Shown here piece after piece: positions 5,562 through 6,672 of a stretch of DNA of 8,103 bases; within the stretch, counting starts at the first letter, position 1, and each line of letters begins with the position of its first letter. The stretch lies in the IMG/VR virus record IMGVR_UViG_2695420792_000011, positions 1-8,103 of that record; one strand, 5' to 3'. The position numbers were made by a program, and so were the translations under genes. This DNA is from a virus (Duplodnaviria; Heunggongvirae; Uroviricota; Caudoviricetes). The notes under the pieces are model-generated. The model was not told where the DNA came from. It ran no database searches and worked only from the letters and a program-made list of their open reading frames with translations.

Positions 5562-5588
5562 AACCCGTATATGTACGGGTTATTTTTC
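5562..5588. terminator. Hairpin aacccgta-tatg-tacgggtt followed by atttttc; intrinsic terminator between convergent genes
   Basis: 8-bp perfect stem 5562-5569/5574-5581, 4-nt loop, T-run 5583-5587 on the plus strand. The minus-strand stop codon (5580-5582) lies inside the right arm. Confidence 0.6.
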
Positions 5589-6128
5589 TTTATCACTATC
5601 TTTTCTTGATTTGAACAATCCACTAACAACGAAACCAACCAAACCAACAATACTAATTGTACTTGTACCTAGTAATGCAACGATCGCTTCAACTGGAGGC
5701 TTTCCTTCATGTGCAATAAGAAACGATGTAAACATTGCGACAACGAATAAGCACCAACACGACATAAACCAAACCGTGAATGAGGCCATTTTTGTCCGAA
5801 GCTCATTGTCTATTTCTTTACCAGTTGCGTCAGCTATCTTATCCCGTACTTGTGATTTGAGCATATCAAGCTGAGCTTGAAGACTGTCCATTCTGTTCTG
5901 CTGCATAAACTCATGCAATGCACCAGTATTAGAACCAAACTCTTCTGCCTCCAGAATAGCTTTATTTTCTGAAGAAGAATCATCGTCGCTCTCATGATTA
6001 GACGGCTCAAATGCAGATTTAAAAACCTGTTCTTGACTGTCAGTAGAGTTTAAGGATGCTTCAGAGCGACCATTTTCAACACCTGCGGCCGCTCCGATAA
6101 GTTTATAGATATCTGAATTGTGAGACAT
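5580..6128 (-). CDS. 182-aa membrane protein: acidic disordered N-terminus, predicted coiled-coil, two C-terminal TM helices; candidate toxin/effector (PanT-like) partner of the upstream DUF4065 protein
   Basis: ATG 6128-6126 lies 22 nt downstream of the stop of the 6151-6624 gene. Hydrophobic segments MASFTVWFMSCWCLFVVAMFTSFLIA and IVALLGTSTISIVGLVGFVVSGLF (about 5613-5786) are followed by a basic tail KSRKDSDKEK. AT-rich codon usage. Confidence 0.7.
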   Translation of the reverse strand: MSHNSDIYKLIGAAAGVENGRSEASLNSTDSQEQVFKSAFEPSNHESDDDSSSENKAILEAEEFGSNTGALHEFMQQNRMDSLQAQLDMLKSQVRDKIADATGKEIDNELRTKMASFTVWFMSCWCLFVVAMFTSFLIAHEGKPPVEAIVALLGTSTISIVGLVGFVVSGLFKSRKDSDKEK

Positions 6129-6150
6129 GTCATCCCTGAATATTACTTTT

Positions 6151-6624
6151 TCAGAGGCCCTGACATTGCTGTCGGTTATTCAATAAATCATGATAATAAG
6201 CCTTGATCGCATCATTTGAGATGATTGACGAGCCAATACCATTATAAGCTTGTGACCAAGGCGTACCTGGCATATGAGTTAGAGTTGATAACTCAATTCC
6301 ATTTTTCGAGCCGTAAAACTTATAAACAGCCCCGATAATGCTCTCTGCTTGCGGATCCATAGTAACGATGCCACCAAAAGGAGCTACTGCTACATTCGTA
6401 ACAGGTTTATTCCCATAGTCTTTGAAAGCATCGTACATTCCAGGAATAACTGGACCGTACTTCCACGCGGAGACACATTCATTGAGCAAAGGCTTACCTG
6501 TTAATGCTAAATAGTAACCATGGGCAATATAAGTAAGCTTCTGCAGTTGCATGTGGGTCAGAGGATTATGATGTTGGTTTCCCAACGTTATGAATTTATT
6601 GGCTATTTGTACCGGACTGTACAT
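6151..6624 (-). CDS. DUF4065 / Panacea-domain protein (PanA-like putative antitoxin; COG3600 GepA-like), 157 aa
   Basis: ATG 6624-6622 preceded on the minus strand by GAGGAGGGTGG. The track start at 6639 (MRRVV) sits inside this SD and is less likely. Conserved-looking core LTHMQLQKLTYIAHGYYLALTGKPLLNECVSAWKYGPVIPGMYDAFKDYG (AWKYGPV at 6448-6468). Confidence 0.75.
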   Translation of the reverse strand: MYSPVQIANKFITLGNQHHNPLTHMQLQKLTYIAHGYYLALTGKPLLNECVSAWKYGPVIPGMYDAFKDYGNKPVTNVAVAPFGGIVTMDPQAESIIGAVYKFYGSKNGIELSTLTHMPGTPWSQAYNGIGSSIISNDAIKAYYHDLLNNRQQCQGL

Positions 6625-6654
6625 AACCACCCTCCTCATTACACTGAATGTGCA

Positions 6655-6672
6655 AACAGTATCATCACTGTT
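6655..6672. promoter_or_regulatory. Inverted repeat AACAGT-atcatc-ACTGTT about 30 bp upstream of the Panacea gene start; candidate operator
   Basis: Perfect 6-bp arms with a 6-bp spacer read directly from the sequence. Its position in the 5' leader/promoter region fits an autoregulation site, but no promoter boxes could be placed confidently. Confidence 0.3.

Follow-up and report, generated by a model that had tools for sequence, protein, structure and literature searches.

The DNA analysed here, which we refer to as the window, is the whole of a stretch of 8,103 nucleotides (nt), positions 1 to 8,103 of the IMG/VR virus record IMGVR_UViG_2695420792_000011. It carries two adjacent genes on its minus strand, which we assign to a Panacea-type toxin-antitoxin system and call panA and panT. 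The gene panA is located at 6151..6624 and encodes a stand-alone Panacea (DUF4065) antitoxin of 157 amino acids (aa), and panT is located at 5580..6128 and encodes a membrane toxin of 182 aa. The antitoxin gene comes first and the gap between the two is 22 nt (6150-6129), the same arrangement of open reading frames as was described in the first-pass annotation of this DNA. The window is Escherichia coli DNA, and the 2 kb around the pair are 99-100% identical to chromosomal loci where the two genes are annotated as 'Panacea domain-containing protein' and 'hypothetical protein'.

Counted from its first ATG, the open reading frame of panA is longer, 6151..6639 on the minus strand, and would give a protein of 162 aa. 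The start at 6624 is favoured over the ATG at 6639, because a Shine-Dalgarno sequence, GAGGAGG, can be read directly in the minus strand at 6631..6637, 6 nt ahead of the ATG at 6624, and because the RefSeq annotation of panA has the same start. The protein matches the Pfam family PF13274 (SocA_Panacea) over profile positions 1-112 of 113 with an E-value of 6.2e-18 and a score of 66.2 bits, where the curated cut-off of the family is 25.7 bits. The Panacea-like core that had been pointed out from the letters alone, LQKLTY, AWKYGPV and YDAFKDYG, is found in full in the 157-aa translation, and the Pfam match, which had been suggested as a check on it, is significant. The GPV motif of the core is found at residues 57-59 (KYGPV), and it is functionally important in the PanA of Vibrio harveyi (Kurata et al. 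2022, PNAS 119:e2102212119, PMC8832971). A search of PADLOC-DB 2.0 with PanA gave a single match at chance level, to a type I restriction-enzyme model (E 0.017), and a sequence search of the PDB gave nothing meaningful.

The other protein, PanT, has 13 acidic (D+E) and 3 basic (K+R) residues between positions 16 and 66, so that the acidic N-terminus noted earlier is confirmed. Its Kyte-Doolittle profile has hydrophobic segments at 114-140 and 145-172. In the AlphaFold2 model there are helices at 4-14, at 53-66 and 68-139, which together are nearly continuous from 53 to 139, and at 146-178, and residues 16-53 are disordered. Both the hydropathy and the model give the two transmembrane helices that had been expected of this protein. 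Judged by its composition and its predicted structure, PanT fits the description of the T3 membrane toxins, with an acidic N-terminal stretch (16-66) and two hydrophobic C-terminal helices. No curated Pfam family, PADLOC model or PDB sequence matched it. Two Pfam families were considered for PanT together with 23 homologues and were rejected, DUF2975 with sub-threshold matches in 7 of the 24 sequences (best E 0.0014), and DUF2207_C, which gave a sub-threshold match only.

The translation of panA is 100% identical to the RefSeq protein WP_000287252.1 of E. coli strain KD0845, and in Table 1 of Kurata et al. (PMC8832971) this protein appears under the name PanA(Esc. col.) as the antitoxin of E. 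coli STEC O31. The toxin partner in STEC O31 is WP_000019185.1 with the mode of action 'Membrane', and the supplement row of GCF_000281775.1 assigns the pair to toxin cluster T3, with the order A|T, an intergenic distance of 22 and the status 'TA'. The window PanT is 100% identical to WP_021563277.1, also of strain KD0845. Hence the window pair and the pair of STEC O31 have the same antitoxin, the same antitoxin-first order and the same 22-nt gap, and their toxins appear to be of equal length, to fall in one 90%-identity cluster and to have in common an acidic N-terminus followed by two transmembrane helices at the C-terminus. The difference between them is the toxin itself, WP_021563277.1 in the window as compared to WP_000019185.1 in the published experiments. 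The window toxin falls in a single 90%-identity cluster, and the alleles that we translated differ from it at 1 (WP_000019187.1), 5 (WP_000019186.1) and up to 12 of the 182 positions, most of them being paired with an identical PanA protein. The PanT accessions at the 16 E. coli loci examined were WP_021563277.1, WP_000019186.1, WP_000019187.1, WP_032209643.1, WP_000089360.1, WP_053878051.1, WP_059274466.1, WP_370602600.1, WP_024237201.1 and WP_089557599.1, and the tested WP_000019185.1 did not occur among these loci. From these sequence comparisons it is near-certain that the window allele belongs to the published system.

When expressed alone, PanT(Esc. col.) halts growth, and transcription, translation and replication are blocked together (PMC8832971). 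The toxin depolarises the inner membrane, as seen with DiSC3(5), and admits SYTOX Green, which was interpreted as the formation of large pores. The PanAs rescue from their cognate toxins only, an evolved Vibrio PanA rescues partly from PanT(Esc. col.), and neither ClpXP nor Lon is needed for the neutralisation by PanA (PMC8832971). The measurements of toxicity, rescue and membrane potential that were proposed in the first-pass annotation have thus been published for the STEC O31 pair, which has the identical PanA and the toxin WP_000019185.1. Its reading of the locus as an antitoxin-first Panacea gene with a small membrane toxin is borne out by the identity with PanA(Esc. col.), and none of the sequence-level checks that it named spoke against that reading. 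The membrane partner, for which it left open whether a characterisation existed, has been characterised as toxin cluster T3. The module could thus be recognised from the raw sequence. As a discovery the pair carries little weight, since its name, its experimental tests and its mechanistic class all date from 2022. The pair is already known, and the novelty here is its genomic context only. Two control primers in the supplement of the same study have no DNA match in the window, yet the peptides that they encode, FGGIV and FVVSGL, occur in the window PanA and PanT. The published constructs therefore have different codons and are presumably synthetic genes.

The alleles were compared between the window (5580-6624) and the loci L004, L006-L009, L011, L013, L028 and L033. 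The evolution of the two genes is asymmetric. Many of the toxin alleles go with one and the same PanA protein, and the changes in PanT are concentrated in two places, its acidic N-terminal half and its first transmembrane helix. As compared to L008, panA has 0 non-synonymous and 11 synonymous codon changes, and panT has 12 of each. The selection on panA among the E. coli alleles is strongly purifying. The allele of E. coli ET120, WP_370602600.1 (L012:71-628, 185 aa), has an in-frame duplication of GLV inside the second transmembrane helix, and this natural variant might have an altered or disabled pore.

The two genes are part of a larger unit. The homology to prophages that lack PanAT ends at 5524-5535, at the end of a PrtN-like gene, and restarts at about 6868, and from these two breaks the cassette can be placed at about 5536-6867. 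This cassette-specific DNA (5536..6867, read on the minus strand) is approximately 1.33 kb long and is replaced by other cassettes in related prophages. On its minus strand there is a predicted promoter at 6782..6809, some 155 nt ahead of the start codon of panA, with 12 of 12 positions of the sigma-70 consensus (TTGACA-16 nt-TATAAT), and this 28-mer is found without any change in 6 of the 7 other PanAT loci checked, including that of phage PhiR47_1. At the other end of the cassette a GC-containing hairpin, terminator-like on both strands, is found at 5558..5585. It lies between panT and the convergent PrtN-like gene (5247-5546, plus strand) and overlaps the panT stop. A search of Rfam gave no RNA family in the window. 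The module had earlier been given the coordinates 5580-6672, and both genes are indeed inside these, while the functional unit is larger and the promoter at 6809-6782 falls outside. The low GC content that had been taken as a signature of cargo is found as well, 39.6% in the cassette as compared to 47.0% in the early region, but it is not specific to the pair, the chromosomal flank beyond the cassette being lower still, at 37.1%. Since the GC content of the adjacent chromosomal yjbM region is below that of the cassette, the low GC content is weak evidence of foreign cargo.

The DNA that follows the cassette, 6868..6928, is the end of the prophage on the attR side and adjoins the attachment crossover. 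It is common to all four cassette types that we found at this position and is 95-98% identical to L015, L016 and L018. It is followed on the minus strand by an orphan 5' fragment of dusA at 6929..7033, which consists of 35 codons (MHGNSEM...APMLD), has the same direction as panAT and was left by the integration of the prophage. In RefSeq this fragment is annotated as a partial tRNA-dihydrouridine synthase, and it shares 82% identity with the beginning of the restored dusA gene at the far end of the prophage. Beyond it lies the chromosomal yjbM (DUF2713). The prophage of strain KD0845 is lambdoid and about 44 kb long, and its other end has a tyrosine integrase beside an intact dusA. This is the arrangement of the elements with dusA-specific integrases, which target the 5' end of dusA and whose integrase gene adjoins the restored dusA (Farrugia et al. 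2015, PMC4482086). With the integrase and the intact dusA at the opposite end and the orphan fragment here, panAT is prophage cargo at the attR end. The earlier view of the pair as cargo placed after the early operon was right, and it can be sharpened to a variable slot beside attR of a dusA prophage. The orphan 5' end of dusA still has its native upstream region and faces the cassette (window 6782-7033), so that panAT could be reached by transcription from the host dusA as well as from the predicted promoter of the cassette.

The same cassette is present in three sequenced phages, PhiR47_1, phiSTEC1575, which is Stx2k-converting, and 1720a-02, and two of these three genomes are Stx2-associated. 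In the record of PhiR47_1 the genes are labelled 'PanT toxin' and 'PanA antitoxin', and PhiR47.1 has been used as a plaque-forming temperate phage (2025 preprint). The dataset row of PanAT(Esc. col.) says 'NotPhage' (PMC8832971), whereas we find the cassette inside a dusA prophage and in phage genomes.

From the identity of the antitoxin, the class of the toxin and the location of the cassette, we are highly confident that the module is the PanAT(Esc. col.) toxin-antitoxin system and that it travels as cargo of a temperate lambdoid phage, or prophage, inserted in dusA. Some points weigh against this. The toxin in the published experiments has another accession (WP_000019185.1) than that of the window, and some of the substitutions among the alleles fall in the first transmembrane helix. 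Direct PanA:PanT complexes were seen in pull-downs of five other pairs, the E. coli pair not being among them (PMC8832971). The confidence of the AlphaFold2 model of PanT is low, with a mean predicted local distance difference test (pLDDT) score of 59.9, and it reaches 75-85 in the transmembrane region. The putative promoter and terminator are consensus matches, and the region has 5 promoter-like sites as compared to 6.5 expected in shuffled sequence. Lastly, no natural trigger and no phage-defence or addiction phenotype of the pair was found in the literature searched.

Two other parts of the window concern the prophage itself. The PrtN-family gene presumably has the place that torI, an excisionase gene, has in the K-12 prophage KplE1, that of the last early-region gene before attR. 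Judged by this position, it probably encodes the excisionase of this phage and not a pyocin activator. Positions 1-345, at the opposite end of the window, have a GC content of 62% and hold part of a prophage gene for a tail-fibre N-terminal domain, which abuts the region upstream of yfdP at about 343. This junction between the tail-fibre gene and the early region was found in none of the 5,426 complete E. coli genomes. The prophage thus seems to be the unique remnant of a deletion, in which late genes were joined to the early region, or the product of an assembly join.

In the same set of 5,426 genomes the pair is present in 79, always on the chromosome and in one copy per genome, and the neighbouring exonuclease/PrtN arm is present in 741. 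What lies between this arm and the prophage end varies among at least four cassettes, as seen from a comparison with the slot regions L015:4395-5490, L016:4386-5607 and L018:4395-5896. Besides PanAT (window 5536-6867, 79 genomes), there is a cassette with a 193-aa Panacea protein and a soluble 153-aa protein (46 genomes), one with a 190-aa Panacea protein and proteins of 128 and 57 aa (208 genomes), and one with a non-Panacea pair of 177 and 57 aa, found also in O157:H7 (358 genomes). Together these four make up at most 691 of the 741 genomes with the phage arm, and three of the cassettes are Panacea pairs. The three PanAs of the slot can be aligned only locally, with 20-33% identity, and their partners are unrelated. 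The other two Panacea cassettes (WP_001547985.1/WP_001547986.1 and WP_000458583.1/WP_014640052.1) were not found in the supplements of Kurata et al. (PMC8832971) that were searched.

A search with PanT gave 67 homologues with identities down to about 38%, from the genera Enterobacter, Klebsiella, Salmonella, Providencia, Serratia, Pantoea and Cronobacter. In all 7 of the divergent PanT loci inspected, a Panacea gene of 153-157 aa is found on the same strand, 21-44 nt upstream, so that homologues of the two genes do co-occur, a point that the first-pass annotation had proposed to check. They also diverge together, PanT identities of 66, 48, 42 and 48% being paired with PanA identities of 75, 59, 45 and 48%. 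Every context of the divergent loci is phage-like. An alignment of 24 PanT homologues showed that the N-terminal half is variable and the C-terminal half conserved. A conserved motif, G-x-x-IDN-x-LR, leads into the first transmembrane helix, and the second transmembrane helix is near-invariant, ALLGTSTISIVGLVGFVVSGLFK.

A possible mechanism can be outlined from these features. The two genes would form one operon, transcribed from the predicted promoter at 6809-6782, possibly with read-through from the orphan dusA, and ending at the hairpin at 5558-5585. It is conceivable that the second transmembrane helix, which is rich in small residues, builds an oligomeric pore together with the first. By analogy with the PanT:PanA pair of Bartonella, PanA may hold the toxin inactive by binding the variable, acidic N-terminal half of PanT and the helix that precedes its membrane segment. 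The gain for the phage would be the killing of an infected cell when a competitor disturbs PanA, that is abortive infection, or a penalty on the loss of the prophage.

Three known systems can be compared with this outline. In SocAB of Caulobacter crescentus the target of the toxin SocB is the DNA-replication clamp. The antitoxin SocA is the founding Panacea antitoxin and has the same domain, PF13274. SocA is an adaptor for ClpXP and causes the degradation of SocB, whereas PanA is reported in the literature to need neither ClpXP nor Lon, and this protease-independent neutralisation argues against a mechanism of the SocAB type. The window toxin further differs from SocB in being a membrane protein. 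Among the type I systems, HokB and TisB are much shorter peptides under antisense-RNA control, in contrast to PanT with its 182 aa, its long soluble N-terminal half and its protein antitoxin. They resemble PanT in the depolarisation and the global shutdown of macromolecular synthesis, and HokB was the comparator used by Kurata et al. (PMC8832971). The third system, PanT(T12/D11):PanA of Bartonella apis/choladocola, shares with PanAT a stand-alone Panacea antitoxin and a pore-forming membrane toxin, whose N-terminal region is likewise charged and whose transmembrane segments lie at the C-terminus. In the model of the Bartonella pair, the Panacea protein binds an unstructured N-terminal region and a short pre-membrane helix of the toxin, and mutagenesis supports this. 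The interface is validated for the Bartonella pair only, and from it we infer that of the E. coli pair. The T3 and T12 toxins are similar in composition and may be homologous, but FlaGs did not cluster them together (PMC8832971).

The role of the pair in the phage is a separate question, and the explanations considered for it, defence, addiction and lysis, do not compete with the molecular identification. A role in anti-phage defence is quite possible, if still tentative. In the prophage, PanT would be kept silent by PanA. An invading phage would inactivate or titrate PanA, or be sensed by the Panacea domain, and PanT would then perforate the membrane before the phage cycle ends, resulting in abortive infection or superinfection exclusion. 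The cassette occupies a cargo slot of variable content at the prophage end, which fits with this. So do the divergent family members, four of which are located between P2 gpA and the portal gene, at four separate loci in P2 relatives with 38-42% PanT identity, and the P2 gpA-gpQ region is a defence hotspot (Rousset et al. 2022). Two of the P2-type loci adjoin a reverse-transcriptase gene or a pair resembling the cyclic oligonucleotide-based anti-phage signalling system CBASS (DncV-like/Cap15), the Providencia member adjoins type I restriction-modification genes, and a DUF4145 gene neighbours some of the family loci. These P2- and Providencia-type loci are L023, L024, L025, L034, L035 and L036, with the gene from position 3001 or 4001 in each. 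The NetFlax paper, moreover, proposes that Panacea is a sensor and ties toxin-antitoxin systems to defence. Against a defence role, the hotspot location is correlative, and such slots carry non-defence cargo too. Neither PanA nor PanT has a significant model match in PADLOC-DB 2.0, and phage-challenge data for the pair were not found in the literature searched.

The slot itself resembles the P2 gpA-gpQ hotspot (Rousset et al. 2022) in having a fixed position within prophages that are conserved elsewhere, a variable content and alternative small cassettes. It differs in that a description of the slot in the dusA phages, from the PrtN-like gene to attR, was not found in the literature searched, neither as a hotspot nor with a defence phenotype for the pair. 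We would suggest, with some more reservation than for a defence role in general, that the slot is a defence-type hotspot that exchanges Panacea cassettes with unrelated toxins, and that PanAT(Esc. col.) is a phage-triggered module for abortive infection or exclusion. The Panacea protein would in that case sense the invader and release the pore-former.

Type II toxin-antitoxin pairs that reside on mobile elements classically act by addiction, and the pair could also stabilise the prophage. If the end of the prophage were lost, a labile PanA would disappear and residual PanT would kill the cell, so that the element, or a remnant of it, is retained. The location at the extreme attR end and the strong purifying selection on PanA (0 non-synonymous and 11 synonymous changes, as compared to L008) are in line with this, as is the persistence of the pair in a prophage that seems to be deleted, with the tail-fibre fragment fused to the early region at about 343. 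We nevertheless consider addiction unlikely. The neutralisation is independent of ClpXP and Lon and no evidence of an instability of PanA was found, a membrane-inserted toxin would have to outlast PanA, and the other cassettes of the slot turn over freely, which argues against a strong fixation.

A third explanation, that panAT is no natural toxin-antitoxin pair but an accessory for lysis timing or membrane remodelling, with a holin-like protein and its cytoplasmic inhibitor serving the lytic cycle of the phage itself, is very improbable even though PanT makes large membrane pores as holins do (PMC8832971) and one homologue directly follows a holin-family gene and another is found within a tail gene cluster, because the lysis cassette (essD, rrrD and a lysis protein) is found in the late operon about 15 kb away in a full-length relative, the family sits in P2 accessory hotspots and not in lysis modules, and a holin/antiholin function is disfavoured by the position of panAT, by its orientation, convergent with the neighbouring early genes and with a predicted promoter of its own, and by its dispensability, as it is swapped for unrelated cassettes in sister phages.

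A published toxin-antitoxin system can thus be placed in its genomic context, as a cassette running from a predicted promoter to a predicted terminator, in an exchangeable slot beside attR in temperate dusA phages, Stx2-converting phages included. With three unrelated Panacea cassettes for one slot, with relatives in the P2 hotspots, and with PhiR47_1 being available, the role of the pair, in defence or in addiction, and its trigger are directly testable.

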